Assembly (NCBI RefSeq): GCF_006345805.1
Contig: NC_043009.1
Span: forward strand, 11,656,001-11,720,000
Source of the DNA: Octopus sinensis
Lineage: Eukaryota
Length of the DNA stretch: 64,000 nt
Reading direction: 5' to 3'
Position 1 is the stretch's first letter. Every line of letters begins with the position of its first letter. The translations under genes were made by a program, and so were the position numbers. The notes beneath the pieces were generated by a model. It searched no databases. It was not told the DNA's origin and worked only from the letters and a program-made list of their open reading frames with translations. This document shows, in pieces, positions 2,308-62,138 of the stretch.

Positions 2308-2946
2308 TTTCTACTCTAGGCACAAGGCTCGAAATTTTGGGGGAGGAGGCCAGTCGATTAGATCGACCCAGTACGCAATTGCTATTTGATTTATCGACCT
2401 CGAAAGGATTAAAAGACAAAGTCGACCTCGGTGGAATTTGAACTCAGAACGTAGCGGCAGACGAAATACCTATTTCTTTACTACCCACAAGGGGCTCAAC
2501 ACAAAGAGGACAAACAAGGACAGACAAACGAATAAAGTCGATTTACCACCCACAAGGGGTTAAACACGGAGAGGACAAACAAGGACAGACAAACGGATCA
2601 AGTCGATTTCATCGACCCAGTAACTGGTATTTATTTAACCGATCCCGAAAGGATGAAAGGCAAAGTCGACCCCGGCGGAATTTGAACTCAGAACGTTACG
2701 GTAGACGAAATACCTATTTCTTTACTACCCACAAGGGGCTAAACACAGAGGGGACAAACAAGGACAGACAAACGGACTTAATCGATTATATCGACCCCAG
2801 TGCGTAACTGGTACTTATTTAATCGACCCCGAAAGGATGAAAGACAAAGTCGACCTCGGCGGAATTTGAACTCAGAACGTAACGGCAGACGAAATACCGC
2901 TAAGCATTTCACCCGGCGTGCTAACGATTCTGCCAGCTCACCACCT
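2308..2946 (-). mobile_element. Head-to-tail array of family-A SINE units with one head
   Basis: Repeated bodies joined at acgaaatacc|tatttcttt (2470, 2714); head at about 2900-2946. Confidence 0.9.
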
Positions 2947-3404
2947 TATTGCCAGCTCGCTATATTGGCTATTTATGGCTGGAGCTCCTTTCATCAGGAG
3001 TCTGTTTAATCAGGATTATGACCTAAACAACAAAATAACAAAAGTTAACATAGACTCAAAACCATAAATTTAGTTCAGGGAATCAGTTTATTCCATCTAC
3101 GTTGAGTATTTGAACATACTTTTACTAAATTGCTCCGGGATTTATGAAAGAGCAACTTTGAACTCGGACGTAGAGAGACAGCACTAAATATCTCATGGCA
3201 TTTCTGTCAGTCGTTTTAACGATTCTGTTATCCAACGCCAAGCAATGAGTGAACCTCTATGCAAACGCCCGACCTACTAGAAATGATAGCCAACCTCTCC
3301 CACAATATACTGCCTAAAAACACAACAAGGAGAACACACTGTGTAATGTAATCTTAGACACACTATTTCCGAAAAAGAAAAACTGAGCGGCCACAACTGA
3401 AACA

Positions 3405-3620
3405 GAGACAGACAAACGGATTAAGTCCATAATAATATCGACCCCAGTGCGTAACTGGTACTTATTTAATAGACACCGAAAGGATGAAAGGCAAAGTCGA
3501 CCTCGGCGGAATTTGAACTCAGAACGTAGCGGCAGACGAAATACCTGTTCCTTTACTACTCACAAGGAGCTAAACACAGAGAGGACAAACAAGGACAGAC
3601 AAGCGGATTAAGTCGATTAT
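3405..3620 (-). mobile_element. Family-A SINE, partial dimer
   Basis: Body plus second tail, junction at 3545. Confidence 0.85.
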
Positions 3621-3681
3621 AGTTTGTGATATAATTATTGAGATGGGGTTAAGCTACAATGACACGGTATTAATTAGAAAA

Positions 3682-3900
3682 GGCGAACTTGGCAGAAGCG
3701 TTAGCACACCGGGCGAAATGCGTAGCCGTATTTCGTCTGCCATTACGTTCTGAGTTCAAATTCCGCCGAGGTCGACTTTGAATTTCATCCTTTCCGGGTC
3801 GATAAATTAAGTACCAGTTATGCACTGGGGTCGATGTAATCGACTTCATCCGTTTGTTTGTCCCCTCTGTGTTTAGCTCCTTGTGGGTAGTAAAGAAATA
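3682..3900 (+). mobile_element. Full-length family-A SINE with 16-bp TSD
   Basis: A/B-box-like motifs; TSD ggtattaattagaaaa at 3666-3681 and 3901-3916. Confidence 0.93.
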
Positions 3901-3989
3901 GGTATTAATTAGAAAATTATAGGTAACACAACATATGAGTGTAGGTGTATGTGTTTGTGTGTGTGTATGTGTTTTTGTTCAATCAATAG

Positions 3990-4630
3990 TTTCAAATGTT
4001 GGCACAAGGCCAGCAATTTTAGGGTGGGATAATCGATTACACTGACCTCAGTTCTCAACTGGTATTTATTTTATCGATCTCGAAAAGACGAAAGGCAAAG
4101 TCGACCTCGGCGGAATTTGAACTCAGATCATAATGTGTCCGAAAATTACTATCAGGCATTTTTGTGCTAACGTTTCTGCCAGCGACAACTCGACAAGATG
4201 CTAATTAAACAGAAAATAGCCTAAAGACTCAAATATACTTTTCTACTCGAGGCACAAGGCCCGAAATTTGGAAGGAGCGGGCCAGTCGATTAGATCGACC
4301 CCAGTACACAGTTGGTACTTAATTTATTGACCCCGAAAGGATGAAAGGCAGAGTCAACCTCGGCGGAATTTGAACTCAGAATGTTACTGTAGACGAAATA
4401 CCTATTTCTTTACCACCCACAAGGGGTTAAACACAGAGAGGACAAACAAGGACAGACAAACTGATTAAGTCGATTTCATCGACCCCAGTAACTGGTATTT
4501 ATTTAACCGATCCCGAAAGGATGAAAGGCAAAGTGGACCTCGGCGGAATTTGAACTCAGAACATAACGGCAGACGAAATACGGCTACGCATTTCGCCCGG
4601 CGTGCTAACGTTTCTGCCAGCTCGCCGCTT
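3990..4630 (-). mobile_element. Family-A SINEs: degraded copy 3990-4183 and dimer 4240-4630
   Basis: Family-A body; junction at 4402. Confidence 0.85.
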
Positions 4631-7571
4631 TACAGACTCAAATATAATATCACAACTTATCAACTTATATATAAATAAAGGCGAAAAGTAAAATCCGGAA
4701 TTGGCGGGTTTAGAATATAAAATGCAAGGGACACAATGTATTTTGACTGGTGGTCCATGGTACTCCACTACCTTTTCCTGTCTTAGAGCAAATATTTTGT
4801 TGGTTTCAATGGGTTACTGAAAACACTGGAAGGAATTTGGAATTAGAGTTGTCTTTAGCAGAGTTAGGTCTCCAGTCTGAAGATAACTTTCGGGTCCCCA
4901 CCCCCAATCACCAGCTTCAGAGGCTAGAAGAATGTCATGAGTGCTTCTATAACTCAATAATGTTACAGAAAGTAAAATATGCGACGTTGGAAGCTGGACG
5001 GTAAAAGAGTTTGTCGGAAATTTCCTTCTGTTACTTACTTAAGCACATAAGTTAAACAAAAATGGCTTCAAACGAAAATCGAAAATTGCCATGTGCTTAA
5101 ATCTTCACCTAATAATAATCTGCAGAGGATTAACGGCTTTTCAATGTATTAGACATTTCTCGATAATAGGAAAACGAGGAAGAAATGTTATTGAATCGAT
5201 TGATTTCATTCTTGGGAATAAAGAACGAATTTTCTTTCCTTTTTTTACTTTTTTTAGTTAAGAGTTGCACAGACTGACATACAATTCACTGCTCTAAATA
5301 ATACGAACGAGTGGCATAGCTATTACGTCTGGTATAGGATTCAGCAATCCGATAAAATGGAAAAGTTTGTTCACTAGATTTCGAAGAAATTAAGATAGCA
5401 TGGCTGGGTGTAGCTAAAAGAAAAGGTTCCCCAGTTAGAAGTTATTTGTGTACCGGTCCTTATTAGTGGAAGAGCTTTCATTTATGTTACTAAAGACTTT
5501 GAAAATGACACAAACCTACATTCCTTCTCAGTTATTGAGTAGAATTATCTCAATGCCTCTTAAACCCTAGGTAAATTAATGAACTGGCGCTTAACTTCAA
5601 TTTTCTGGCACCAAGAGCATAAGAGATAAATTTTCCGCTTGGATACCAGGCCACCAGCTCATGTAGCATTTCCGGATGATCTGTTATCCATTACCAACAG
5701 TTTAAACGACCTGTGATGATACAATACTAAGTATACTGCCCTAACACATGATAAAACGCCTGCAGTCAAGGCACTCGAGCGTCAATATATTCAATTCAGC
5801 CATTTTACCCGAAGAAACGAGGCTGTTTTCATCAAACTATACTGTTAGCATCATCACGACTGTTACGTAATTTCAGATGTTCTTCGCTTGAATGCCTATA
5901 ATCAATGGTCTGTTCGACGATCAGAAACTAAGCAACAGCAAAATCTTAAATAAGCACATTTTAACTAAGCCTGGTTAGCGGAAATCTTATTTACTGAATG
6001 CTTCCATGTAAAGATCGTGTAACACGACGTGTTATACAATTTTAATGAGATCTTAAACTCATAACATAAGACCACCGCATCTTTAGTGAGCCGAGTCGAT
6101 TTAGATGCCCAGCCTGCCACGAATAAGCTGTACAGCAACGAATGTGATGAAATACAATCCCATGATATATACGCTGCGTGCTAAGATCACAGGACTTACG
6201 TTAAATATTATTATAACCTTGCAATGGGAGCAGATATAGCCAAAGGGTTATGAATTTCGCTTTGCAAGTATTATGTCGCAGGTTTGTGATCTCTCTAGGC
6301 AGAAAATCATATTAAGCAAATGTCTTTTGCTATTAACTCGGATTGATCCATAACTTGTGAGTAAAACTTAATCAAGGGAAACTGTGGGGAAACCCTTCGG
6401 ATAAACAGTTTTGTTATACAATGTCATGCTAATGTTGCATTAATGTCGACTCTATGCTATTCCGTCTACCGCCAAATTGGTGCCAAAAATACTGATCAGC
6501 ACTCATTTGGACCACGTCAGTAAGGCTGAGAAAGGGGTTCTGGCGATTAGAAAAACTCAGGATCTCCATACGTGCAATCCAGGCTTGATCTGTGGCTGTC
6601 ATTAGTGGAGTCCATTTTGTTGCAAACCTTTGGACCAGAGTTTGGAATTGAAGGTGGCCTCCTGTTTCCCACCAACCACAAGGGCCATGAGTAGCACGCT
6701 TTCTCCTGACTAAGCAATCAAAAAATAATTCTTTAATAAATAGCTGAACTTTGCTCTAAGTAATTATTGCATCGGCAAGAATGTATAGCTGAGTTGGAAA
6801 TTTTGGCTTGCTTTCGACAAGAATTTATACTAGAGTCGTATTATTTTGTTTGATGTGAGGAATATAAAATCTAATGTTGCATGCATACTAATTTATAATA
6901 TCACCTTTTCTATCTTTCTTTCTTATCTTCAGACATGGGGTAGGGTTTGAAACGACGGATACACCTCACCGACAAATGAACATATCGAAGTTACCGATTA
7001 ACTAAACATATTTTGCTACCCAGTTAAGCGTAATATGTGGAGAAACAAAAGCAATCGAAAGGTGTCTTAACACGTATAAGGATTCGTTTAAATGCTTCTG
7101 ATAATACAAAATAAAACAGTAAACATCGAGGCATATAGAGACGGTTTCCGTTGACAAATAGTAATGCAAAAAAAAGTTCACACAGTTACAGGATAAACAG
7201 ACAGGACTCCTAATCAATATTTTTTTTATTAATATGGCATATGAAATGATGAAAAGGAAAGAAAATAGAAAGCAGCAAGTATACTGAGAAATATATTACA
7301 GCGAATCATGCAAATATTTCGTAATCTCGGCAGACAAAATGGCGACTTGCGTTGCGTCGAAGAATAATGAGAGAAATATGCTGAAAGAATCGTTCCACAT
7401 CGCAGAACTCGTTCTTGTGGATAGCAAGAATGATCAGGATAGGGATAGGTGGTGGTGGTGGTGGTGGTGGTGGTGGTGGTGGTGATGAGTGGAGGACAGA
7501 TCGCCAGTTTGTTGTAGGTTCGAAAAAGAAAAAAAACTATCAGAAAGCACCCAGCAGATACTTTCAGCTCC

Positions 7572-7602
7572 CTCTGACGAAGGGTTCTAACTGAAACGTT
7601 AG
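7572..7602 (+). ncRNA. Minimal type-I hammerhead ribozyme motif (degenerate stems)
   Basis: ct-CTGACGA-agggttctaact-GAAAC-GTT-ag; AATAAA at 7623-7628. Confidence 0.55.
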
Positions 7603-7819
7603 TTTTATCTTCTTTCCCATTGAATAAAATTTATTTCCTGGTGTGATTAACTATACTTCATCTCATCGACTCAACTAAAAACAGTCTACAGTGTGATTAA
7701 AAATATATTCCATAACCTCAACTAAATTTGTTTTTTGAACTTATAGACACATGTTGGACATCAATTTCCCGAATAAATAACGTTTTACAAAGTAACTAAG
7801 CTTATTCTACGATGGGCCA

Positions 7820-8025
7820 ACGGGGGAGCCTCTACACGATAGATCGACATGCTAATAACAGCAGCCAAATATCCCTCGAATTACACCCTACAGGAACAGC
7901 TTAGAAATAAATACATCAGATAGGGTAGTCTTTCAGATTACTAAAATACTAGACGGTCACAACTGGAACGCACTTGATCATAGATCTACTGGATCGATCT
8001 TGACCTGGGGCTAAACAATAAGAAC
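7820..8025 (+). mobile_element. Old interspersed repeat family D (SINE- or LINE-3'-like)
   Basis: gagcctctac...gctagaaatagcagcc...gatcatagatct...gacctggggctaaacaa; diverged copies near 3250-3400, 9655-9770, 11225-11445, 39280-39500 (+) and 36225-36330, 41785-41965, 48010-48210, 57125-57260 (-). Confidence 0.65.
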
Positions 8026-8480
8026 GACTGAAAAACAGTTAATGTGTGTGTGTATGCATGTGTGTACACGTGTTTGTGATTGTATGTTCATGAAGGGTGG
8101 CTGTGTGTGTACGTGTGTGTGTGTGTACATGCGTATATGTGTGTATGTGTGTCTGTCCGCGCGCGAGTGGTCTGTATGTATGAGCCCATACGTGTTCACC
8201 TCTCAGATCCGTTTGCGTGGAATATGTCCGTGTAATGTGTGTATTTTCTCTATGGATTCTTTTTTTTTTTTTTGTCCGAATGGATTACGAGTGTGTGAGC
8301 TTGTGTGTGTATTTGCAGTCATGTGTGTATGTATGCATGTGGTGCGTGTATATATGTGAGTGTGTGCCTCTCTGTATGCGAGTGTGTGACCGAGTGTTTG
8401 TGTATGTGTGTGTTTTTTTGTTGTTGTTTTTGTTTGTTTTTAACCCAATAAGGTTGAGAAATACTCGTTTTCCACTTTAC

Positions 8481-8535
8481 CTTGGCTGCAAAACAAAAGA
8501 AGGAGAAAAACCTCCATTGACTCTCGGCTGTTCAT
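8481..8535 (-). CDS. Candidate first coding exon of a host gene encoding a signal peptide (MNSRESMEVFLLLLFCSQ-G), phase-1 intron
   Basis: ATG at 8535; hydrophobic core; CAAG|GTAAAG donor at 8481/8480; upstream (GCA)n/(CAC)n and GA-rich tract resembling a 5'UTR; no downstream exon identified. Confidence 0.4.
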
Positions 8536-8579
8536 CCCGATCACTCTCCGGTCACCGACTGGCAAACCAAGTAAAGCTT

Positions 8580-17176: not shown

Positions 17177-17638
17177 CATTCACTTTCATATGTTCAAGGA
17201 CTATCAAGAAGTGCCCAAAACAAAAGCTTCTACTTAAGATTTTTCCCTTGATTAATCCAGTTATTGGTAGAGCCATGAATGAAAACCCCTGGATGGTGAC
17301 ATAGAAGGCTGTAACTTCTACAAATGTTACTGTAAGGTCCATAAATATAATGGCGCAGCTTTGTATTTGCTTCGTGATCTGACGGCAAATCATGATCTTT
17401 TCGTCTTGAAACAGTGTACTTCTCTATCTCACTATATTGTCTAGTGGTAGACATTTTTTCATTTACTCCCCGACACAGATTTCACGCCATAATTCCATTG
17501 GGAATTACTTATGGCTCAAGCAGGAATCAATATCGTGTCGCAATGTCTCCTTGCCAAGAGCTTACTAACACTATAATGAGATCACGCACACACACAGGAG
17601 TGTATATACATTACATTACATGCATGCATATATACATA

Positions 17639-17875
17639 TTTCTTTACTACCCACAAGGGGCTAAACATAGAGGGAACAAACAAGAACAGACAAACGGATC
17701 AAGTCGATTATATTGACCCCAGTGCGTAACTGGTACTCATTTAATCGACCCCGAAAGGATGAAAGGTAAAGTCGAAAGTCGACCTCGGCGGAATTTGAAC
17801 TCAGAACGTAGCGGCAGATGAAATACTGCTAAGCATTTCGCCCGGCGTGCTAACGTTTCTGCCAGCTCACCGCCT
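17639..17875 (-). mobile_element. Full-length family-A SINE
   Basis: Head, body and A1 tail; inserted in (TGCA/TACA)n. Confidence 0.9.
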
Positions 17876-17962
17876 TATGCATGCATGCATACATACATAC
17901 ATACATACATACATACATACATACATACATACATAATACATACATACATAATACATACATAA

Positions 17963-34796: not shown

Positions 34797-35028
34797 TATT
34801 TCTTTATTGCCCACAGGGGGCTAAACACAGAGGGGGACAAACAAGGACAGACAAACGGATTAAGTCGATTACATCGACCCCAGTGCGTAACTGGTACTTA
34901 ATTTATCGATCCCGAAAGGATAAAAGGCAAAGTCGACCTCGGCGGAATTTGAACTCAGAACGTAGCAGCAGTCGAAATACCGCTAAGCATTTCGCCCAGC
35001 GTGCTAACGTTTCTGCTAGCTCCCCGCC
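34797..35028 (-). mobile_element. Full-length family-A SINE with 17-bp TSD
   Basis: TSD ttttcttttgaaaatct at 34780-34796 and 35029-35045. Confidence 0.92.
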
Positions 35029-35109
35029 TTTTCTTTTGAAAATCTAGTGAAATCTTTTCCATAGGCACAAATAAAATGTGTCATTATTTATTCTTTATTC
35101 AGACGGGAA

Positions 35110-37281: not shown

Positions 37282-37510
37282 CGGTGAGCTAGCAGAATTG
37301 GTAGCACGCCGGGCGAAATGCGTAGCCGTACTTCGTCTGCCGTTACGTTCTGAGTTCAAATTCCGCTGAGGTCGACTTTGCCTTTCATCCTTTCGGGGTC
37401 GATAAATTAAGCACCAGTTACGCACTGGGGTCGATGTAATCGACTTAATCCATTTGTCTGTCCTTGTTTGTCCCCTCTATGTTTAGCCCCTTGTGGGCAA
37501 TAAAGAAATA
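37282..37510 (+). mobile_element. Full-length family-A SINE
   Basis: Head, B-box, tail ...agccccttgtgggcaataaagaaat. Confidence 0.9.
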
Positions 37511-37534
37511 AGAATTGGTAGCCCGCTGGGTAAA

Positions 37535-37568
<34 letters not shown>

Positions 37569-39669: not shown

Positions 39670-40302
39670 TGCTAGCACGCCGACTTGACCAGCACCGTCT
39701 GGCATGATTCCGCTCAGCCTCCGAGCCTCACTGCAGAGCTTGGTTCAATGCAATGCCATCACGCGCAACTGGTACTCAACTTGATAGTGACTGCATGCGA
39801 ATTGGCGTTTCCCTGAAGCTTGGCCTCGAGATCTGCGAGCCTCGTGAATGCCGTTACGGATCCATTGTCTTCTTTCGGCCTTCCACGCCATGCCACCCAT
39901 AACAAGATCACAAAGCAGGGCCTATGTTCCGCAGTCTTCCTTTCCCAGCTCGAGCCAGCGGGGCTAGACCGAGGGAGTGGTAACATTTTCCCGTTCTGTG
40001 GTGGTAGACTCTTCCTCTAGGATGCCACATACTGTGACACCTTCTCCAGCGGCAACTTGATGTTGTCAGCTACCAATCTAGGCTTCGCTTCTCGTCAGGC
40101 ATCGGCCGCTCTTCAACAGGTTTATGATCGAGTGGTAGTGGAAACCTCTGGTGTTCTCGGCCCAAGGACTATATCCCTGCTCACTGCTATCAGAGCGGAG
40201 ATTTGCTGTTCGCAAGTGCGAGCCCCGTGAGTCAAAGTGGCTGTTCCAGCGCATCTCCCTCGCTATCCTCCGGGGTAACGCCTTTTTCATTTTGCCTGCA
40301 GG
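39670..40302 (+). mobile_element. CRE-clade non-LTR retrotransposon 3' remnant (Zn knuckle / REL endonuclease region)
   Basis: AWFNAMP...RIGVSLKLGL, RHATHN, LEPAGL, DAT..DT, VETSGVLGP, WLFQRISLAILRGNA; small related piece near 55795-55838. Confidence 0.8.
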
Positions 40303-40621
40303 TGCTATGAGAAATGTCATTCAATGACTAAAAGCAACATTTTATTGCAGTTTGATACAAAGTTTGACCTCTTCTGACCTGTCGTCACTTTTGGATCGAT
40401 TCGTACAGAGGATACTGAAGAAAATTCACATACTGAAACGACAAGTTATTAAATGAAATTCAGTTTTGCTTCCAGCTGTGTGGAGTAGGAGCTTATCTCT
40501 TATTCTAAGGTAGTCAAAGCATGTAAATATCTATTAAAACTGTGACTTTAGTATTTTTTGTTAGAAAAAACAAAAGGAGAAACAGAGAGACTTACACACC
40601 AGCTGATCCAACAATGATACC

Positions 40622-40853
40622 TATTTCTTTATTACCCACAAGGGGCTAAACACAGAGAGGACAAACAAGGACAGACAAATGGATTAAGTCGATTATATCG
40701 ACTCCATTGCGTAACTGGTACTTATTTAATCGATCCCGAAAGGATGAAAGGCAAAGTCGACCCCGGCGGAATTTGAACTCAGAACGTAGCGGCAGACGAA
40801 ATACCGCTAAGCATTTCGCCTGCGTCCTAACGATTCTGCCAGCTCGCCGCCTT
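40622..40853 (-). mobile_element. Full-length family-A SINE with 15-bp TSD
   Basis: TSD tccaacaatgatacc at 40607-40621 and 40854-40868. Confidence 0.93.
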
Positions 40854-41162
40854 TCCAACAATGATACCACTTTTAATCATACCTTTAGTCTCTAAAGATC
40901 GGATGCAAACATTCAGATTTTCGAATACTCCGTATTCATTTGGTTATGTTTTAATGAGTTAGTTTGGGAGAAAAATCTATATCTCCTGGCCTTTTCAAGC
41001 CTTTTATATCGTTTTAATGACTTTTTCAAGACAAACTATACAAGAAGGGGATAAACTGAATGAAGAAATAAAATGTTACTCATGTTTGTTCATGGAAGAC
41101 AGTGAATTGGTATTGACTAAAGACGATCAGACAACATTCTAGCAATAGAGGGAATATATACA

Positions 41163-41735
41163 GCGGTGAGCTAGCAGAGTCGGTAGCACGCCGAGCGAAA
41201 TGCTCGATGGTATTTCGTCTGCTTCTACGTTCTGAGTTCAAATTCTGCCGAGGTCGACTTTGCCTTTCATCCTTTCGGGGTCGATTAAATAAGTACCAGT
41301 TACGCACTGGGGTCGATATTATCATGGACTTAATCTGTTTGTCCTTGTTTGTCCTCTCTGTGTTTAGCTCCTTGTGGGTAGTAAAGAAATAGGTATTTCG
41401 TCTGCCGCTACGTTCTGAGTTCAAATTCCGCCGAGGTCGACTTTGCCTTTCATCCTTTCGGCGTCGATTAAATAAGTAGCAGTTACGCACTGGGGTCGAT
41501 GTAATCGACTTAATCCGTTTGCCTGTCCTTGTTTGTCCTCTCTGTGTTTAGCCCCTTGTGGGTAGTAAAGAAATAGGTATTTCCTCCGTCTATACCTTCT
41601 GAGTTCAAATTCCACTGCGGTCGACATTACCCTTCATCTTTTCGGGTTCGATAAAATATAAACACCAGTTGAGCACTGGGGTCGATCTAATCGACTTATC
41701 CTTTCCCCCAAGGTTGCTGGTCTTATGTCAAAACA
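41163..41735 (+). mobile_element. Family-A SINE trimer (one head, three bodies)
   Basis: Junctions aaagaaata|ggtatttc at 41391 and 41575; last unit has a diverged A2-type tail. Confidence 0.9.
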
Positions 41736-42094
41736 TTTTAATATACCGAATATGTATGATTTGATGGAAGATCAGTAGTTACTTATTGTTTAGCCAGTCT
41801 TAATCGAGCAAACCTCTTATGAAAGGCATTCACGTCTTCACACTCCATCTTTTCAAAGATGGGGTTAATAGAACTACATTTTTTAATGCATAAAGAAAGG
41901 GCTTTATTGAGGTATATTTGGCTGTCATGTCTAGCAAGTCAACCGACCATGTAGAGGCTCTTTCAACGGAAATATTTTTCTTTGGTGTAGGCAGCTCTTT
42001 TGATCCAGAATAAGCAAGCGTACGATTGATATTACATTGTACATAAGGACAGTAATATAATATAATATATTATATTATATATATATATAATATA

Positions 42095-43279
42095 ATGCCT
42101 GTATAGAGTTGATGGTTTTAATTAAATATCAGAATATTTTGTAGATCAAGAAACGAAATTTTGCTTTGTAGCTATGCAAAGAATGTGTAGTCCCAATGAA
42201 AGGTTATCATGAATTGTAAAATTTAACATTTCCATATGGGAACGATATAACTGTATAATTAACTTCAGCGACATATTTATTTTAGAAATACTCTTTTACT
42301 TGTTTCAGTCATGTGACTGGGGCCATGCTGGAGCACCGCCTTTTTAGTCGAGCAAATCGACCCCAGGACTTATTCTTTGTAAGCCTAGTATTTATTCTAT
42401 CCGTCTCTTTTGCCGAATCCCTAAGTTACTGGGACGTAAACACACCAGTATAGGTTGTCAAGCGATGCTGGGGGGAGAAACACAGACACACAAACACACA
42501 AACACATATATATATACATATATACGACGGGCTTCTTTCAGTTTCCGTCTACCAAATCCACTCACAAAGCTTTGGTCGGCCCGAGGCTATAGTAGAAGAC
42601 ACTTGCCCAAGGACTGAACCCGAAACCATGTGGTTCGTAAGCAAGCTACTTACTACACAGCCACTCTTGTGCCTTGCATATGTTTGAGAAATAGAATCTG
42701 GAGCGTTTAAGTCTCGAAACTGTAACATAAAATACCACATGTCATGCAAATTTATCCAAACACATGAACTTTCTATGTTATCTTTTTCCAATACAGACCA
42801 TCACTGATTTCTTTTGACTCACTTTTTAATGTGTAACATTACTCTTTCATCATTATATTGTCGATTTACAGTGTAGTTTCTATTTCTCTGATGACGTTTA
42901 ATGATATCGAAACGTGTTCCAGCTTATCTTCTGTGTTTGAATTAACTGATTGTTTGTGTGTGGTGGTGCTATTGTGGGTGTGAAGGCAGCGAGCTGGCAG
43001 AATCGTTAGCACGCCGGGCGAAATGCTTAGCAGTATTTCGTCTGCCGTTACGTTCTGAGTTCAAATTCCGCCGAGGTCGACTTTGCCTTTCATCCCTTCG
43101 GGATATACCAGTTATGCACTAGGGTCGATATAATCGACTTAATCCGTTTGTCTGTCCTTATTTGTCCTCTCTGTGTTTAGCCCCTTGTGGGTAGTAAAGA
43201 AATAGGTATTGTGGGTTGTGTATGTGCGCGTGTGATGTTGAGATGAGTGTGTGATGGTGTGGTGCGTGTATACTTACAC

Positions 43280-43315
<36 letters not shown>

Positions 43316-43809
43316 TCACATACGCGCACATGTGTTTGTATTGTGAGAATGAAGTCGTATGACATATTTTCCAGTACTTAGAAGTTCGCGTGTTCCTTCA
43401 TAATCCAAAACGGAAAGATGTGAAGAGAATTCTTGTTATTTAATCTGACATTCTTGATACTGCTCTTCATAGATACAAAGACCACAGAGCAAACAAGTTT
43501 AAACAAGACTGGGGTGTTACTTTTGAAACTATTTATATCACTGTTACACGTGTTTCAGTGAAGAAAGGACGAGTTACGTAATCCTGACCCGAGATACTAA
43601 TTAGATAACCCGGACATCAGAGTTGATTTCACACTAGATTATTGTAGCTGCCGATAGTTATATAGAAGATTGTGCTTTTTTTTTTGTTTTTGAAAGATTA
43701 AAATGGAGAAGGCAACATACTACTTCTGGGTATTCTTCTTAAGCTTAAAATAGCTGAAAACTTTATCATTTATCAGTCGAGTATATAATATCTCTTTAAC
43801 ACCATAAAA

Positions 43810-43853
<44 letters not shown>

Positions 43854-45559
43854 ATATATAATGCCTGTATAGAGTTGATGGTTTTAATTAAATATCAGAA
43901 TATTTTGTAGATCAAGAAACGAAATTTTGCTTTGTAGCTATGCAAAGAATGTGTAGTCCCAATGAAAGGTTATCATGAATTGTAAAATTTAACATTTCCA
44001 TATGGGAACGATATAACTGTATAATTAACTTCAGCGACATATTTATTTTAGAAATACTCTTTTACTTGTTTCAGTCATGTGACTGGGGCCATGCTGGAGC
44101 ACCGCCTTTTTAGTCGAGCAAATCGACCCCAGGACTTATTCTTTGTAAGCCTAGTATTTATTCTATCCGTCTCTTTTGCCGAATCCCTAAGTTACTGGGA
44201 CGTAAACACACCAGTATAGGTTGTCAAGCGATGCTGGGGGGAGAAACACAGACACACAAACACATATATATATACATATATACGACGGGCTTCTTTCAGT
44301 TTCCGTCTACCAAATCCACTCACAAAGCTTTGGTCGGCCCGAGGCTATAGTAGAAGACACTTGCCCAAGGACTGAACCCGAAACCATGTGGTTCGTAAGC
44401 AAGCTACTTACTACACAGCCACTCTTGTGCCTTGCATATGTTTGAGAAATAGAATCTGGAGCGTTTAAGTCTCGAAACTGTAACATAAAATACCACATGT
44501 CATGCAAATTTATCCAAACACATGAACTTTCTATGTTATCTTTTTCCAATACAGACCATCACTGATTTCTTTTGACTCACTTTTTAATGTGTAACATTAC
44601 TCTTTCATCATTATATTGTCGATTTACAGTGTAGTTTCTATTTCTCTGATGACGTTTAATGATATCGAAACGTGTTCCAGCTTATCTTCTGTGTTTGAAT
44701 TAACTGATTGTTTGTGTGTGGTGGTGCTATTGTGGGTATGAAGGCAGCGAGCTGGCAGAATCGTTAGCACGCCGGGCGAAATGCTTAGCAGTATTTCGTC
44801 TGCCGTTACGTTCTGAGTTCAAATTCCACCGAGGTCGACTTTGCCTTTCATCCCTTCGGGATATACCAGTTATGCACTAGGGTCGATATAATCGACTTAA
44901 TCCGTTTGTCTGTCCTTATTTGTCCTCTCTGTGTTTAGCCCCTTGTGGGTAGTAAAGAAATAGGTATTGTGGGTTGTGTATGTGCGCGTGTGATGTTGAG
45001 ATGAGTGTGTGATGGTGTGGTGCGTGTATACTACACACACGCACACACACACACACACACATACTCACATACGCGCACATGTGTTTGTATTGTGAGAATG
45101 AAGTCGTATGACATATTTTCCAGTACTTAGAAGTTCGCGTGTTCCTTCATAATCCAAAACGGAAAGATGTGAAGAGAATTCTTGTTATTTAATCTGACAT
45201 TCTTGATACTGCTCTTCATAGATACAAAGACCACAGAGCAAACAAGTTTAAACAAGACTGGGGTGTTACTTTTGAAACTATTTATATCACTGTTACACGT
45301 GTTTCAGTGAAGAAAGGACGAGTTACGTAATCCTGACCCGAGATACTAATTAGATAACCCGGACATCAGAGTTGATTTCACACTAGATTATTGTAGCTGC
45401 CGATAGTTATATAGAAGATTGTGCTTTTTTTTTTGTTTTTGAAAGATTAAAATGGAGAAGGCAACATACTACTTCTGGGTATTCTTCTTAAGCTTAAAAT
45501 AGCTGAAAACTTTATCATTTATCAGTCGAGTATATAAATATCTCTTTAACACCATAAAA

Positions 45560-47070: not shown

Positions 47071-47302
47071 CTATTTCTTTACTACCCACAAACGGCTAAA
47101 CGTAGAGGGGACAAACAAGGACAGACAAACGGATTAAGTCGATTACATCGACCGCAGTGCGTAACTGGTACTTATTTAATCGACCCCGAAAGGATGAAAG
47201 GCAAAGTCAACCTCGGCGGAATTTGAACTCAGAACGTAGCGACAGACGAAATACGACTACGCATTTCGCCCGGCTTGCTAACGATTCTGCCAGCTCGCCG
47301 CC
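47071..47302 (-). mobile_element. Full-length family-A SINE
   Basis: Head, body, A1 tail. Confidence 0.9.
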
Positions 47303-48825
47303 TCTAGCAAAAACACTTACTTCTTTCAAGAAGAGTGGTGTACGGGCGGAATTACCAGAGTATCGAAAAGAAGTGGCGAAAAGAAGCTTTGTGGCATTTG
47401 TTCCGATTCTTTACGCTCTGGTTTCAAATCCAGCCAAAGTCAACTTTGTCTCTCGTCGTTTTGGAATCAATAGAATAAAGCACTGGTCAGTTACTGGGTT
47501 AATGTAATCGACGGCCCCTTCCACTCTTTTTTTTGGGTGGGGGGCTTTTACCTATTTTAGAAACCCTTATTTCTTTCTAGAGTGCAATAATTGGGTGGAC
47601 ATCGAAAGAATGATCTGCTGTTTTACATTAGGTTTCTGAATGTTAAGTGTTCAAATCCAGCCAAAATTCACTCATCTTTATAGAATCGATAATACAGCGT
47701 TACATCCAAATATTGGGATCGACCTAATCTACTCCCCACTTCAAGCAAATTAAATCAATTTAATCAGTCAATTAATCAAATTAATTTAATTTAGTGGAAG
47801 GGAATTCATTAAAATAATCTTTGTAATTGAGCAAATGTTCTTTTTTCCTCACTGAATAAGTGTTTTCAATTAGATTTTTGATACTGACTGCATTAAATAT
47901 GTTAATACTAACTTAACCAATATTTTTTTCTAATTGTGTTAGTGTTAACGTAAGTAACAGACGTGCATTATTCATGACTAGAGAGAGACAAGATATTTAT
48001 CCTTGTTATATAAATCGCATCAGGTCCGATCCGGCAAGTCTATGATCAAAGATGTTTGAGCTGTGACAAACCCATCCTTTTTACAGGCACAGTGTATCTA
48101 GAAATATATTATCCAATGAATCTTACCTTTTAAGATAATTGCGTACGATTTAAGGGACTTTTGACTAATCCTTTTAGCTAATCGAACGACACTGCAGAAG
48201 GTTACTCATTAAGCTTGCCTTTTGCATGCTGGTGTTGATAATTAAAATGAGTTAAGATAAAACAAATAATTAGGTAGGTTGCCTGAGCATGCGCTATATA
48301 TGCAAGGAGAAGGTGGGAGGTCAACGCCCAGGATTCTTTATATTCCCACGACCTTCTGATGGTCGTAGTGGGGTTGAAAGGAAAATGCTATCTGCAAACA
48401 GGTGACTTGGGATAAATGCATGCAACAAAGTAAAGTCCGATAAAAACGCTTAAAAGCCAAGAGATAATCATAATAGGCAGCGAATTGACAGAGTCGTTTG
48501 AGCATTGGAGTGAATGCGTCGTGGTATTTGCTCAGACTGTCTGGGTTCAAAGTCTATTGTCATGGCCAACCGAGTAACCATGGCAATTATCTTAATCCGT
48601 CGCCCGGTATCTATGGTATCTTAAGGTGCTTTCAGAGGCCTCTGCTCTGTTGTAAGGATTCGAACTAGATTTCCTTCTTACTAGTCTCGGAGGCTCCGTA
48701 ATAGCTCATGGACGCTGTCTTGTACAGCTACAGAGTAACTACTACTACTACTACCACCATCACCACTACTACTACAGCTGATGTTGCTGCTACTAATACT
48801 GCTTTCACTAATAATAATAATAATC

Positions 48826-49230
48826 CGTTCTACTATAGGCACAAGGCCTAAAATTTTGGTGGGGAGGGGGCCAGTTGATTAGATCGACCCCAGTGCACAA
48901 CTGGTACTTAATTTACCGATCCAGAAAGGATAAAAGGTAAAGTCGACCTCGGCAGAATTTGAACTCAAAACATAGCAGCATACGAAATACCTTTTTTTTT
49001 TTTACTACCCACAAGGGGCTAAACACAGAGGGGACAAACAAGGACAGACAAACGGACTAAGTCGATTACAACGACTCCAGTACGTAACTGGTACTTATTT
49101 AATCGACCCCGAAAGGATGAAAGGATGTGCGGGTCGACCTCGGTGGAATTTGAACCCAGAACGTAACGGCAGACGAAATACGGCTACGCATTTCGCCCGT
49201 CGTGCTAACGTTTCTGCCAGCTCGCCACCT
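48826..49230 (-). mobile_element. Family-A SINE dimer adjacent to (AAT)n
   Basis: Junction at 48991; A2 tail abuts (aat)n at 48810-48824. Confidence 0.88.
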
Positions 49231-49239
49231 TACAATAAT

Positions 49240-54509: not shown

Positions 54510-54568
<59 letters not shown>

Positions 54569-54573
54569 CAGAC

Positions 54574-54650
<77 letters not shown>
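54370..54650. repeat. (GACA)/(GA)/(GATA)n compound microsatellite
   Basis: Direct reading. Confidence 0.95.
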
Positions 54651-54652
54651 TG

Positions 54653-55020: not shown

Positions 55021-55250
55021 GGTTCATAGGATTATGCTCAAGGTAGCTTCATTGAGGTATATGTATGTGTGTGCATGGGTGCAACCAAAACTCCAAGCAC
55101 AGAAACAATTGGCTAACTTGCACCACCTTGTCATCTCTTCCAGCCAACCCTCTCTCTCCCGAATCCTAACTCATATTTCACGCTGCGTCTGGTTAAGCGC
55201 GATCCCTTATCTCATTGCAAGTCTACATCTCAGTGATTCCCTCATTAACT

Positions 55251-55480
55251 ATTTCTTTACTGCCTACAAGGGGCTAAACACAGAGAGGACAAATAAGGAC
55301 AGACAAACGGATTAAGTTGATTATATCGACCCCAGTGTGTAACTGGTACTTCATTTATCGACCCCGAAAGGATGAAAGGCAAAGTCAACCTCGGCGGAAT
55401 TTGAATTCAGAATGTAATGGCAGACGAAATACTGCTAAGCATTTCGTCCGGTGTGCTAACGTTTCTGCCAGCTCGCCGCC
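55251..55480 (-). mobile_element. Full-length family-A SINE with TSD (cctcattaact)
   Basis: Direct repeat flanks at about 55240-55250 and 55486-55496. Confidence 0.9.
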
Positions 55481-57457
55481 TTTTTCCTCATTAACTTGTT
55501 GCTTTCTTCTTTCTTTTTCGCTACCACTGACCATTACAATTCCGTCTGGATTTTAGACTTCATCTCTCCTCACGACAAATTTACCATTTATTCAAGGGCA
55601 ACCGAACCTCTTCACTTTGTCTATTGTCTACTTCTTCAATGTTATTAATTGTTACAATGTTTCCAAGTTAAATCAGGACTGATCTGAAAGTAAACGCGAG
55701 TAACAAACAAACACACATACAAAGAAGCAGTTACCGAATACTCGTACAAAGCAAGCTCTTATACATGTTCAAAAACAAATGAATGCTCCTCTCCTTCGCT
55801 ATCCTCCGGAGCAACACCTTTTCTATTTTATCTGCTGAGACATCCACACACACACACGTACATACACATACGCACGTACACATACATACATACTGTTTCA
55901 AAATTCTATAGAAGCAGTGTGTGACTTATAGGAAATTGTACGTTCCACTCCTTAGATATTTACATCCACGCAATGATTTACTTTAATCGCTAGTTGCCCT
56001 GGCATAGGGTGGAGATTGCAATATATTTTTGTGTCATTTGTTAATTTGTTTCTATTCCTTACATTGAAAAAGAAAAAAACGGAAAGCATTCTTTTGGTTC
56101 CTTGTTCTACTAAATTGTCGCCATCGCAATCAGTCAACGGTGATTAAACACATACTAAAGTGCCTTACGATATATTTGCATCAGTCACAACTGTTAGTTT
56201 TGTGGCCCCATTCTTTTATTGTTAATAGTAGCGATTCCTCACCTGAATTCGCAGGCTGTTGGGGATCTGCTATGATAACACTGGGGACCGTGAGCTGCAT
56301 TCAAAATTTTAAAAGGCTGCAGAGTAAAATTCATTATTACCCAGTTGCATATTATCTTACTCAGTTAAATAATTGAAATTAAGAAAACGAGTTTACAGCT
56401 AGTTAATAAAACCCGTTATTTTGTGTAGACAATTCTTTCAAAAGCCTAGGGTTCTTTGGGAAAATTCATTTTGATAAAAGGGTTCTTGGTAGAGAAAAGG
56501 TTGTGGGGGAGGGGTGCTCTTCTTTACAACGTTTAATACACTGCTACTTGAAAGAGAATTACTTTATTCACCATAAGGTTGAGAAAAAGAGGGGACAATA
56601 CGGGGACAGACAAAACAAACGTTGGGGTCAGGGAATCGAATGAGACGAAACGTATGAATAAACAATTAAAATATATACAGTTAAATGAGAATGAGTGATT
56701 AACAAAAAATTTTTTAAATGAAGCGGAAGACGCGGTCGACCCCCAAAACCACATACTCACACTGAAGACTTTGCTTTCTCCTTTTTATATTCTCATTTAA
56801 ACAGGTTCTTTCACTCGCAACATACTTGCTATAGACATCCATCTTTTACGAAACACATTTTGCGACAAGCATTTCTTCTCCAGCCCTATTTTCCGTTTCA
56901 TGTGGGGAGGTTGCTGTTTTGACCAATTCTGTTTATAGTAGGGTGGCAGCGCTAAGCAATGATGTGTACGAATACAAGTTTGTTACCAATTCAAATATGC
57001 TTGGGGCAAATTCAAACCCGTAAGAAAACCGTTTCCCTGTTATGGAGAAAATTTCTCTCTATAGAGAAACAGTTTATGGTATTTAGTATACTGTTTGCAG
57101 GTTTTCCGGAAGCCTTTTCTTGGCGAGCAATTGTTTGATCAGGTAGCTCTCTATGATATAAAAAATACTCTGACCGTAACCATCCCAGCTTTATGTTGCG
57201 TTTTATTTTAATCTCAGTGTATCTAGGACCACATTTTTAAATAGCGTGTATCATTTTTTGTTTTTGTTTATTCTGATTGATTTAAGGAAAACCTAGCAAA
57301 TGTTTACTTTCACCTGTAACAAGATGAAGGTCTCAGGAACACTTAAGAGGTATCTGTCTAATCGTGTCACATAAAATTGTCGAAGGGAGAACCAAAATCC
57401 GACTGTCTTCAATAGCAGTAAATAATACTTCATTTTTCGGGTTTCGCAAGTAAAAAT

Positions 57458-57877
57458 GGATCTTTTCGGTTTGAACGGCAGTTTTTTCTAGCGGTGTCAT
57501 ATGAAATTGTCACCCATAATTATGACCCTAGTATCGATCTATTGCATTTCAATCTGTTTTAGGGTTAGGGTTAGGGATGGGGGGAAGGGTATCTTTTTTT
57601 CTTCACAAATGTAAATAAATCCAATCTGTTTCTTAAACGAGGGACATATTCATACGGCACAGAATGTTTATTTTACCTCAATAGACGTCAGTGATTGGTT
57701 GAAATTGCAGAAATTGAAGAAAAACAACAACAATTATCTTACAAACTATAGAATTTTCTCAATAAAGCCAAGAGAAAAAGATGTTTTATAAACACATTCT
57801 ACCAGTATACGAAGTTTAAAAGTGTTTAGTTAAGTGTAAATTATTTTTAAAAACTGCCGTTCAAACCGAAAAGATCC
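57458..57877. mobile_element. MITE with 29-bp TIR (GGATCTTTTCGGTTTGAACGGCAGTTTTT) and internal (TTAGGG)3
   Basis: Perfect terminal inverted repeats; flanked by an approx. 160-bp direct duplication. Confidence 0.9.
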
Positions 57878-58420
57878 AATCTAGCAAATGTTTACTTCCA
57901 CCTGTAACAAGATGAAGGCGTCAGGAACATTTGTGGGGTGTCTGTCTTGTCACATAAAATTGTCGAAGGGAGAACCAAAATCCGACTGTCTTCAATGGCA
58001 GTAAATAATACTTTATTTTTCAGGTTTCGCAAGTAAAATTATATACACATATATTTTCCTTAAGGGTGAACTGGTAGCCAAGTCCACAAGACTGTTCACT
58101 TGTGTGAGCCAAATTTACCGTCTCCGTTCCCTCTTAGAAGAGAGCTTCTCTATATGTAGGGTTTTCCCTGAGAGAAGGTTGGTCACGTCCACTCGGTAGG
58201 GTTGCTGGTTCAAAAAGACAGATTTAGCGGGAACGCTTTCAGTTTGCAGTTCTCTGCGCATGCGCATGAGGGAACTTCCAGCGACCTACCAGACAGTTCT
58301 ATAGAATATTGATCGGCTATTAATCACTGATCATGACTATATGCTAGAGGAAGTCAAAAATCATTCACACTTTCACCAAAGCTTTCTTAAAGTTGGCCGC
58401 ACTGCCTTCAAGCCCTCGCG

Positions 58421-59192
58421 GGATCTTTTCCTTTTGAACGGCACTTTGTAACATAATTTCTAGGTAACTAAACACTTTTAAACTTCGTATACTGGTAGAA
58501 TGTGTTTATAAAACATAATTTTCTCTTGGCTTTATTGAGAAAATTCTATATGTTGTAACATATTCCGTCTTTAATTTCGAGCATTTCGGCAATTTTAACC
58601 AATCGCTGACCTCCATTTAGGTAAATAACATTCTATGCATAATGAATATGTCCCTCCTTTAAGAAACAGATTGGGTTTATTTACATTTGTGAAGAAAAAA
58701 AGATACTCTTCCCCAACCCCTAACCTTAAATCTAAAATAGATTGAAATGCAATACATCGATACTAGGGCCATAATTATGGGTGACGTTTTCATTTGACAC
58801 CGCTAGAAAAAAATCCCATTTTCCGTAGCGGTGTCTTATGAAATTGTCACCCATAATTATAACCCTAGTATCGATCTATTGCATTTAGGGTTAGGGGTGG
58901 GGGAAGGGTATCTTTTTTCTTCACAAATGTAAATAAACCCAATCTGTTTCTCAAACGAGGGACATATTCATACGGCACAGAATGTTATTTACCTAAATAG
59001 AAATCAGCGATTGGTTGAAATTGCCGAAATGCTCGAAATCAAAGACAAAATATGTTACAACATATAGAATTTTCTCAATAAAGCCAAGAGAAAATGATGT
59101 TTTATAAACACATTCTACCAGTATACGAAGTTTAAAAGTGTTTAGTTACCTAGAAATTGTGTTGAAAAGTGCCGTTCAAAAGGAAAAGATCC
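58421..59192. mobile_element. Palindromic dimer of the same MITE family with 8-bp TSD (Merlin-like)
   Basis: Arms 58421-58805 and 58826-59192; flanks ccctcgcg / cgctcgcg (7/8 match). Confidence 0.88.
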
Positions 59193-59284
59193 CGCTCGCG
59201 TGCTAAAAGGTGGTACTCTTGTAGTTACGTAACCGAGGTTTGACTCTGATTACTCCAGTTTTCTTTCTTGTATTACAGAGTAAA

Positions 59285-60045
59285 CATGGCCACTCCGCTG
59301 GCAGTGTGCACCAAGGAAAAACAGAGAACAGTTCTCCGATTTCTCTGGTTTGCAGGTTGTGTCAGGAGATGAAATTAATCGCAAACTTCCAGTACAATAC
59401 AGGGACAGTACTCTGTGTTGAAGCTTGTGCGAATGGAGCAAGAAGTTTTAAAATGGCCGGAAGGCGTGAAGTACACACACACACACAAAAGAAGAAAAAA
59501 GAAGAGCAATCAGGACGCCCATCAACCAGACATGAAAATTCAAGACTTGAGAGATAGTTCAGACGAACTGACGAGTGGCCATCGATGGGGTGTCATGGTC
59601 TCAGCTAATTAGTCATGGTTCTGCAGACAAAATCGTTCACCACAAGCTTCGCTTCAGTAAAGCCTGTGTGAGATGGGTTCCAAGAGAGCTTATCGAAAAG
59701 CATGAGCGCAATCGTGTGGAGATCTGTAAACGCTTACTCGACCGCTACAATGATGAAGGCAAAGTATTTTTTTTAAAGAGAGAATAGCGACAGGAAATAA
59801 AACCCGAGTCCATCTCTTTAAGTCAGAATCCAAAAGGTAGAGTGTAGAATCACCAGCAATAAAAAAATTCAAGACTCAACCTATCGCAGAAAATTGATGC
59901 TAACCGGTTTTGCGAAGCAAAAAAAAATCCTATGCTGGAACAATACCTACAGTCCTCAGTGTATGCTACAATGAAATGCTGGCCAACAAAGTGAAACCAG
60001 CAATACGCACCGAATGGGTCTCGAATTGCTGGAACACCCAGGTCT
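59285..60045 (+). pseudogene. Degenerate mariner transposase
   Basis: SGRPST, HKLRFSKACVRWVPREL...RVEICKRLLDRY.DEG, IATG, KKFK; many frameshifts. Confidence 0.85.
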
Positions 60046-60179
60046 AAATATTTGCATTCTTTGTGTGACTAAACTTCAGAGAAAGGGACATTTGGTAGCA
60101 GTCATTCTATATTCGTCAAACAACATGCAGATATGAAGGAAGACTCTCTGACCCCATGTCACTGGAAACAATAACACCT

Positions 60180-60410
60180 ATTTCTTTACTACCCACAAGG
60201 GACTAAACACAGAGGGGACAAACAATGACAGACAAACGGATTAAGTCGATTACATCGACCCCAGTGCGTAACTGGTACTTAATTTATCGACCCCGAAAGG
60301 ATGAAAGGCAAAGTCGACCTGGGCGGAATCTGAACTCAGAACGTAACGGCAGACGAAATACCGCTCAGCATTTCGCCCGGCGTGCTAACGTTTCTGTCAG
60401 CTCGACGCTG
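60180..60410 (-). mobile_element. Full-length family-A SINE with TSD (aataacacct)
   Basis: Direct repeat at about 60170-60179 and 60415-60424. Confidence 0.88.
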
Positions 60411-61397
60411 GCAGAATAACACCTGGCGGGTCCAAAATTCTTTTGCATCGGTGAAACTTTCAGCAATAAATATATTTAGCTTCTTCAATAGGTGATCCCT
60501 TCTTTCGTTTGCATCTACCTCTAGAACTACTCCTGTTGAGCCCTATTTACAGACGGAGAACAAATAAGACAATAAGACAACCACGTCCTTATCCATTAAA
60601 GAATTTTCAGATATCATCAAGTAGTCTGCATATACTTTAGAAATCCTGCCTGTCCTACCATCACCATTATTTTAACACCCACTTGGGTCGGGTGACATTT
60701 GTTGAGACATATTTTCTACGGCCGGATGTTCTTTCTGTCGCCAACCATCACTTGTTTCCAAGTAAGGACATATTTCTCCGTAGCCAGACATACATTCACG
60801 GAAGATTGGAAACGAAGAATGTTTATACGACAGTGAAGCTCGTTTACAACTATCAAGCGAAGCTGAAACAAGAAGACACTAACACATGTATCTACACATA
60901 CTCACACACACACATCTATACAAATATATAGACATTCACACACGCATATATATAACGGGCTTGAAGCCTACTTCACGAAGCTTCGGAGTGGCCCGTGGGT
61001 ATTGTGGAAGGCACTTATCCAAGGTGTCACTCAATGGGACCGAATTCGTAACTATATAATTGTGAACCAAACTTCTCACCATACATAAACCTATTAATTA
61101 CAACCAAATTCTCAGACGCACTTTTATGTCTGCAAAACAATGTGATGTAGATTTAAGTTGGCAACTGTTAATGCAAAAAAAGTTTTAACTTCTGCTACTC
61201 CAATTGAGAAATCTTTCATTTTGTTTATATACCATGTTAATCGTTGTCTACTGATGAACAAGCAGTTGGCGACAGGAAAACAATCACTTCTATATTGCTT
61301 GAAGAGCATACACGTATGAGCAGGGAATGTTTAGACTACTGTTTAGTTTGACAACAGGTGAAGGATCAGATGGTCTTCTGAATCTCTCTTTTTCCCC

Positions 61398-61783
61398 TTT
61401 TACTTGTTTCAGTCATTTGAGTGCGGCCATGCTGGAGCACCGCCTTTAGTCGAGCAAATCGACCCCAGGACTTATTCTTTATAAGCCCAGCACTTATTCT
61501 ATCGGCCTGTTTTGCCGAACCGCTAAGTTACGGGGACGTAAACACACCACCATCGATTGCCAAGCGATGTTGGGGGGACAAACTCAGACACACACACATA
61601 TATATATATATATACATATATACGACGGGCTTCTTTCAGTTTGCGTCTACCAAACCCACTCAAGGCTTTGGTCGGCCCGAAGCTATAGTAGAAAACACTT
61701 GCCCAAGGTGTCACGCAGTGGGACTGAACTTGGAACCATGTGGTTGGTAAGCAAGCTACTTACCACACAGCCACTCCTGCGCC
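61398..61783 (-). mobile_element. Full-length family-B SINE
   Basis: Head, internal (CA)(TA)n, tail ending gactgaaacaagtaaaag. Confidence 0.92.
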
Positions 61784-61804
61784 TAAGTCTGTAAAACTTA
61801 GCGT

Positions 61805-62138
61805 AATTTATCGACCCCGAAAGAATGAAGAGCAAAGTCGACCTCGGCGGAATTTGAACTCCGAACGTAACGGCAGATGAAATACCTATTTGTTTACTAC
61901 CCACAAGGATCTAAACACAGAGGAGACAAACAAGGACAGACAAACGTATTAAGTCGATTACGTATTACGTATTAAGACAAACGTATTAAGTCGAGTGCGT
62001 AACTGGTACTTAATTTATTGACCCCGAAATGATGAGAGGCAAAGTCAACCTCGGAATTTGAACTCCGAACGTAATGGCAGACGAAATACCGCTAAGCATT
62101 TCGCCTGGCGTGCTAACGTTTCTGCCAGCTCGCCACCT
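61805..62138 (-). mobile_element. Family-A SINE dimer
   Basis: Junction at 61886. Confidence 0.85.

Follow-up and report, generated by a model that had tools for sequence, protein, structure and literature searches.

Head-to-tail arrays of a SINE joined at fixed internal sites in the genome of Octopus sinensis, and a LINE as its likely partner

SINE copies and arrays of the window

A stretch of 64,000 nucleotides from Octopus sinensis (RefSeq assembly GCF_006345805.1, contig NC_043009.1, positions 11,656,001 to 11,720,000; hereafter the window) contains solo copies and head-to-tail arrays of a short interspersed element (SINE), in which the tail of one unit is fused to an internal site of the next. 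The copies were analyzed in the window and throughout the genome (2.72 Gb, AT-rich and microsatellite-rich), and the arrays were probably built in place by self-insertion at a fixed site of the SINE head, driven by a partner long interspersed element (LINE) and with the 5′-ends resolved by homology. For counts free of selection, a sample of 1.064 Mb consisting of the window and 100 stretches of 10 kb was used (the unselected sample).

The consensus of the young subfamily A1, built from 68 copies, has a length of 233 bp and is composed of a head with a B-box-like motif (positions 75-87), a 117-bp body common to the older subfamilies A2 and A3, and a tail. No tRNA was found by ARAGORN, and Rfam gave no tRNA match at E-values up to 1 in the 6.1 kb searched. 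The tails of A1, A2 and A3 as well as those of the LINEs described below consist of a hairpin, in which the loop is CTTGT and the stems are changed, followed by 12 bases and then by the target. Target site duplications (TSDs) with a score of at least 9 were detected for 51 of 81 copies, compared with 16 of 399 in shuffled controls; they are mostly 13-19 bp long and begin directly after the 12 bases of the tail. Since both TSD copies carry the motif at which they begin, this motif belongs to the target DNA. The element is thus short, non-coding and present in high copy number, has TSDs of variable length and a LINE-like 3′-tail, and is a SINE. Its body presumably resembles the 66-bp Meta domain that follows the head in MetaSINEs.

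All eight tail/internal junctions described in an earlier, sequence-only reading of the window were recovered within at most one base, at 2470, 2714, 3545, 4402, 48991 (after an A-run) and 61886 on the minus strand and at 41392 and 41576 on the plus strand (Table 1). According to that reading, four arrays end in an alternative A2 tail. Four alternative tails were indeed present; they are of A2 type in the arrays at 2308, 4238 and 48828, and of A3 type in the array at 41157-41740. A GGTATT-like motif had been reported for the TSDs of four solo copies and was present in both TSD copies at 3901, 40621 and 60178, but only downstream at 43205. Among the ten young-tail solo copies of the window, six are followed by GGT and four by other bases. 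In the trimer at 41157-41740 the terminal unit has 82% identity to the consensus, compared with 87% and 96% for the other two. Empty or solo alleles were sought for window positions 40300-43500 in the reads of four public runs, which were swamped by paralogues.

Table 1. SINE copies and arrays in the window, with strand and target site duplications.
Position	Strand	Feature	TSD or target
2308-2947	-	Array: head and A1 unit 2947-2715; A1 unit from 2714; terminal A2-type unit from 2470	No clear TSD
3400-3619	-	Broken array: A1 tail fragment, junction 3545, body 3′-truncated	
3666-3916	+	Solo A1 copy (about 3682-3900)	16 bp, both copies begin GGTATT
4225-4646	-	Dimer: A1 head and unit 4631-4403, junction 4402, terminal A2-type unit	13 bp (TATAT start), surrounds dimer
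17637-17876	-	Solo A1 copy inside CATA microsatellite	Start not GG
34797-35030	-	Solo C-tail A1 copy	17 bp, begins AGATT; counter-example to GGTAT
37282-37535	+	C-tail A1 copy, then short piece resembling head position 17 onwards (remnant of second junction type)	
40622-40853	-	Solo A1 copy	15 bp, begins GGTATC
41157-41740	+	Trimer: head and A1 unit; A1 unit from 41392; last unit from 41576, whose old tail is of A3 type	
42983-43204	+	Solo A1 copy	GGTATT downstream, GCTATT in the upstream TSD copy
47072-47303	-	Solo A1 copy	Followed by GGTAC; no TSD found
48828-49231	-	Dimer: A1 head and unit, A-run, junction 48991, then an old A2 unit with ATT repeats at its end	
55250-55482	-	Solo C-tail A1 copy	Begins GTTAA
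60179-60408	-	Solo A1 copy	10 bp, spans GGTGTT
61804-62139	-	Dimer: A1 head and unit, junction 61886, second unit truncated by a different repeat at 61804	

Some further observations were made on these copies. The middle unit of the array at 2308-2947 contains a 65-bp duplication of the tail alone (2543-2471; region 2477-2609), and short tail stutters with GAAATA repeats precede the junction at the surveyed loci L105, L227 and L265 and in one LINE copy of the family treated below. The solo copy at 42983-43204 recurs at 44741-44962, about 1.76 kb away, together with its flanks (42983-43320 and 44741-45069); because the flanks are common to both, the two copies are a single insertion, duplicated locally or as an assembly repeat. 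Another short element, separate from the SINE, was found at 63712-63856 (minus strand) and at L246:590-731, with a TGCC-CTTGT-GGCA hairpin and a 12-base end; its two copies are 83% alike over 145 bp.

Fixed junction sites and the candidate partner LINE

Genome-wide, the 21-mer of the young (A1) tail was matched exactly 64,260 times, and a junction 32-mer of the tail and GGTATTTCGTC had 17,781 exact matches, far above chance as judged by a control with 0 matches. A second type of junction, in which the tail is joined to AGAAACGTTAGCAC (head position 17, AGAAAC), gave 1,348 exact matches. In the unselected sample, the entry points lay at consensus positions 50-52 in 49 of 57 junctions, at 17-18 in 5 and elsewhere in 3, and the resulting units of 184 bp and, for position 17, 217 bp are both shorter than the SINE. 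The array junction is a fixed site, of which two exist, the main one at position 50 and a rarer one at position 17. The concentration of junctions expected from the window was hence observed, and the claim that units are always joined at one internal site was refuted by position 17. Arrays mostly comprise 2-4 units (34 of 35 in the unselected sample). The main figures are based on a redone de-duplication of the loci, while an earlier one, which had dropped some independent arrays including the window trimer, underlies the array lengths and the counts of window solos above as well as the unselected tail-allele ratios, the rate at GGTAT sites, the A2y TSD starts, the A1-A1 age comparison and the 13 solo targets given below.

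The two tail alleles of A1, termed T-tail and C-tail, differ in the junctions that they precede. T-tails were found 149 times at position 50 and 6 times at position 17, and C-tails 6 and 47 times, respectively (P = 3e-33), in a set that includes loci picked for each junction; in the unselected sample the ratios of position 50 to position 17 were 44:0 for T-tails and 1:5 for C-tails. A simple preference of the endonuclease for GGTAT, as proposed from the window, is contradicted by several findings. A1 ends are followed by GG in 46 of 90 cases with the T-tail and in 0 of 68 with the C-tail, where AG, TA and AA occur, and a family-wide preference was ruled out by subfamily A2y, whose TSDs begin with AATAT (58 of 83 with a TSD). 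Moreover, a position-50 junction was present in 31 of 162 SINE loci of the unselected sample, compared with 18 GG-start T-tail ends per 1,596 GGTAT sites, so that the targeting of position 50 is roughly 15-fold above the expectation from a 5-mer preference, and the specificity of the LINE described next likewise exceeds a 5-mer.

This LINE, referred to as LINE-S, has a tail ending in GTGGGCAATAAAGAAATT; its end was found in locus L010. The family is young, the best 40 of 522 candidate copies being 98-100% alike, and 30 of the final 33 bases of its tail are the same as in the SINE C-tail. Its exact 3′-end had 115 matches, and 99 of the 100 listed were joined to exactly position 50 of the SINE, which supports the idea of a partner LINE that targets the internal site. 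In a second listing, for which a filter favoring variants was applied, 19 of 25 ends lay at position 50 and four of the other six at CGTATT, GATATT or GGTATT. The eight hosts fetched were all mutually different, with solos, arrays and one A3-tailed copy among them. The C-terminal part of LINE-S is 50-60% identical to ORF2 of the sister family L371, and these pieces gave no Pfam match. In L371, ORF2 (1,145 aa) contains PF03372 (APE endonuclease), PF00078 (reverse transcriptase, RT) and PF13966 (zf-RVT). On these grounds, young LINE-S, putatively of APE/RT type, is the likely partner of the SINE.

The same hairpin with about 12 further bases terminates the sister LINEs, which are located on ATT, ATC or TATC repeats. 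In the TATC family the targets begin with TAT[CTA] in 23 of 30 ends, and its tail and the A1 tail have 37 of 44 bases in common; it was rejected as the position-50 element, which it joined in 0 of 30 ends and in none of the first 100 of 195 tail-end matches listed. A homologue search returned 61 matches, none of them Tx1-named. A 3′-transduction by LINE-S, considered on account of one variant common to 5 of 19 flanks, was also rejected: the hosts differ, the variant is a SINE subfamily (7 of 111), and the last letter of the pattern behind these flanks had selected against the consensus. Other types of tandem arrangement were also seen. Sister LINEs, several with a long open ORF2, form head-to-tail series within their own tails of (ATT)n or (TATC)n (L371, L373, L380, L384, L390, L125), and old SINE subfamilies cluster as whole copies within each other's ATT tails (L083, L148, L156, L098).

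The first junction base at position 50 was G in 137 of 145 SINE junctions (94%). For SINE heads in general the base at this position was G in 112, C in 56, A in 51 and T in 6 cases, whereas the 100 listed LINE-S ends had C in 68, G in 31 and T in 1. LINE-S has a C-type tail and yet uses position 50, and an ORF1-only element at L173:1500-3026 (minus strand; zinc knuckle, weak Pfam match) has a SINE-type T-tail and yet ends at head position 17. This is the reverse of the linkage in SINEs; therefore, the site is not determined by the allele of the tail as such. The difference in the first base between SINE and LINE-S suggests that the read-through end of the RNA helps to pick the site. This difference and the reversed linkage would both be compatible with a trailer passed on from the place where the source itself had landed, and the chance that RNA steers insertion in this manner is put just short of even.

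Origin of the arrays

Insertion into resident copies was evident from loci with two heads. The pattern of a host head, a TSD and a complete new head was matched 82 times genome-wide, corresponding to about 58 places. At least 7 of the 16 loci shown (L232, L243, L244 and L248 among them) consist of an old head, an 11-16-bp duplication, a full young copy with its tail and the remainder of the host, and have the host's own variant in both TSD copies. These loci are ordinary nested insertions at position 50. A separate arrangement, in which a head plus TSD (65-67 bp) is repeated 2-11 times ahead of one body, was observed at L231, L250, L226, L238 and C3430; at L231 the heads number five and are identical, a single body follows, the locus is flanked by an outer TSD of its own, and no host remainder is present.

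In 28 seamless dimers of A1 and A2y, the terminal unit exceeded the first in divergence 20 times (8.4% versus 4.8%, P = 1e-4) and was about as diverged as A2y solos (8.5%). The double heads with TSD and these older terminal units uphold the claimed entry of new copies into older ones at the internal site. As a group, the 59 terminal A2y units were as star-like as 42 A2y solos, with a mean identity of 0.838 in both and a maximum of 0.952.

The single head of the arrays is usually that of the newcomer and not that of the host. In 23 position-50 dimers the heads had a divergence of 6.3%, compared with 6.2% for A1 solos and 12.5% for A2y solos, and the A1-only allele 45G was present in 9 of these 23 heads versus 1 of 37 A2y solos. 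The A2y allele 65T occurred in the first unit of 3 of 23 dimers versus 1 of 76 A1 solos. That the 5′-ends are mostly joined by homology was supported, with annealing as the presumed step. Three solos (L281, L297, L307) combine an A1-type head and start with the body end and tail of A2y and are possibly collapsed dimers or conversions.

The proposed mechanism is target-primed reverse transcription, by which the arrays were likely assembled in place. A young SINE carries the 3′-tail of the LINE and likely uses the LINE enzyme in order to enter resident SINEs at the same base. A nick would be made at the internal site of the head, and the read-through end of the RNA, i.e. the 3′-flank of its source, would pair with the primer and supply or select the first base. 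Lineages would tend to inherit their site, namely G at position 50 in SINEs with the T-tail, position 17 in those with the C-tail, and C or G at position 50 in the LINE. The full-length cDNA would then anneal to the homologous head of the host and overwrite it, leaving one head and no visible inner TSD in nearly every case, and where overwriting fails a double head would be left. Arrays of at least 3 units additionally extend by local duplication. More tentatively, and with somewhat less than even confidence, a self-reinforcing homing loop can be envisaged, in which the LINE specialized on one base of the SINE head, the SINE took the tail of the LINE and the lineages inherit their address via the read-through end of the RNA. 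As part of this loop, it is conceivable, with the same reservation, that arrays beget arrays and that newcomers overwrite the promoter of the host.

A number of observations weigh against in-place self-insertion or parts of it. Double heads account for less than 0.5% of junctions. The inner TSD predicted by in-place insertion is usually absent: a retained one was looked for in seamless arrays and not found, and of 27 cases with rare host alleles at positions 51-66 only 2 had them again in the first unit, so that overwriting of the host head would be required. The divergence gradient anticipated along arrays held for the A1-A2y dimers, but A1-A1 dimers gave no clear one (12 of 21, P = 0.16). 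TSD mismatches amounted to 5.5% for A1 solos (51 of 76 with TSD), 8.6% for A2y-ended arrays (36 of 52) and 11.5% for A2y solos (26 of 37); the TSD age of the arrays is intermediate and not decisive. SINE solos are far less site-specific than LINE-S, and their targets match the position-50 site over only about 7 bases (13 cases). LINE-S is known here from its 3′-part alone, with neither a 5′-end nor an endonuclease domain nor a TSD seen, and its age of about 1% compares with 3-4% for the SINE burst; the real partner would therefore be a forerunner of LINE-S. Units ahead of position-17 junctions are somewhat older than the others (5.0% versus 3.5%), and two endonucleases acting at different times could therefore replace the read-through idea.

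The newcomer head would be explained more simply by template jumping than by in-place insertion, which is a further point against the latter. In template jumping, RT would start on the RNA of an older SINE at a new site, stop at position 50 or 17 and jump to another RNA, from a young SINE or LINE, at its 3′-end via a microhomology of 6-7 bases, giving a dimer in one event. The single head of newcomer type, the missing inner TSD and the terminal-type outer TSD would all be accounted for, and the intermediate TSD age of arrays fits as well. Nevertheless, this origin is unlikely: the double heads with TSD make position 50 a DNA target, an RT stop exactly at this DNA target site and more than about 200 different sources would be required, and selection for transcription as templates is not apparent in the terminal units (B-box mismatch of 5.7% versus 6.0%). 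Newcomer heads, old terminal units and terminal-type TSDs are also predicted if transcription of a few nested insertions began at the inner head and ran on across what remained of the host, and the entire composite was then retroposed from the last tail. There is no T4 terminator at array junctions, and such re-copying may contribute some copies. As the general origin it is very unlikely, since the star-like terminal units disfavor few composite sources. No clusters were present in the 59 terminal A2y units, and only 3 of 1,711 pairs had three private changes in common, all below 0.88 identity, where simulations with 55 and 200 sources led to an expectation of about 15 and 4 such pairs, respectively; at least 1,000 sources would be compatible with the data.

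Tandem duplication at the DNA level by unequal crossover or slippage, or copying of a circular RNA template, is highly improbable as the maker of the arrays. Only 1 of 25 dimers had units at least 95% alike, and their mean identity was 0.90 versus 0.89 for random pairs. This absence of excess similarity disfavors the circular template, from which uniformly similar neighbors would be expected. Neighboring units often belong to different subfamilies, and the tail end and the internal site have only 6-7 bases in common, so that the first junction could not arise in this way. In arrays of at least 3 units, by contrast to the dimers, neighboring A1 pairs were at least 95% alike in 17 of 79 cases versus 3% of random pairs, and hybrid units were found in L210, L261 and L302. 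Tandem duplication is refuted as the main origin; it is a real but secondary route of growth for a minority of units in long arrays. A variant of in-place insertion, which leaves its in-place part unaffected, needs no read-through end of the RNA: related LINEs with different tight specificities (50, 17, TATC and ATT) would have moved SINE subfamilies at different times. The targets of the sister LINEs are indeed (ATT)n, (ATC)n and TAT(C/T), the units ahead of position-17 junctions are older, and in the sections of PMC4494074 concerned Tx1-Mar families differ in their site and SINEU families follow them. Against a choice made by the endonuclease alone stand the first base at the same site (G for SINEs, predominantly C for LINE-S), the opposite linkage of tail allele and site in SINEs versus LINE-S and L173, and the similar ages of T-tail and C-tail solos (3.4% versus 3.9%, P = 0.17). 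The variant is regarded as possible, with the weight of probability on the other side.

Related systems and implications

The closest known counterparts of in-place self-insertion, as far as the relevant parts of the cited reports extend, are the Tx1-Mar LINEs and SINEU elements of crocodilians (Kojima 2015, PMC4494074). There, too, a target-preferring Tx1-type LINE and SINEs occupy fixed positions inside another repeat, with two sites used by different families, tandem copies arise by sequential insertion, and the specificity of the SINE is at most that of the LINE. However, their target is a Mariner DNA transposon and not the head of the SINE itself, and SINEU tandems keep a TSD between whole copies, whereas the octopus units lack a head and the host head would be overwritten (PMC4494074). 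In R2, as described in part of PMC11204384, the 3′-tail of the RNA anneals to the target primer and the cDNA anneals upstream, which gives seamless joining on the 5′-side; direct joins make up a minority. R2 differs in its restriction-like endonuclease and 28S rDNA target; here, an APE-type LINE and a dispersed SINE would be involved, and annealing is assumed (PMC11204384).

Two further systems are alike in form only, again according to portions of the sources. The SINE-derived satellites of squamates are tandems with uniform boundaries and units shorter than the SINE, and are ascribed mainly to unequal recombination and homogenization, whereas the octopus arrays are mostly of 2-4 units and mostly independent insertions (PMC10702118). 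Locally duplicated and homogenized units, which characterize such satellites, were confined here to the 1 dimer and 17 longer-array pairs reaching 95%. The TSD1-(SINE)n-TSD1 structures of the blood clam, likewise a mollusc, have one head, head-truncated repeats and one outer TSD (PMC11481361); their units are shortened at both ends, with recombination as the proposed origin, and no targeting LINE is reported in the passages available. The octopus SINEs OK, OR1 and OR2 and the MetaSINEs are covered by PMC4824008 and PMC4758252, in the available parts of which no arrays or self-targeting are reported. Neither these arrays nor a cephalopod LINE that targets a SINE were found described in the literature searched (listings and the beginnings of abstracts) or in the accessible text of PMC13282606 and the two preceding reports, and the portion of PMC8869645 at hand contained no SINE passage; the LINE and its target may already be named in Repbase or Dfam.

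If in-place self-insertion is true, a retrotransposon uses a dispersed SINE as a safe site and its passenger SINE turns on itself, which would provide a direct route from a SINE to a satellite. Young subfamilies would overwrite the promoters of old ones, and the dating of SINEs and the chronologies of nested insertions would be blurred. Moreover, LINE-S would represent a natural site-specific LINE of APE type that is young enough for testing, and the difference in the first base between SINE and LINE makes the roles of endonuclease and RNA pairing in target choice testable.

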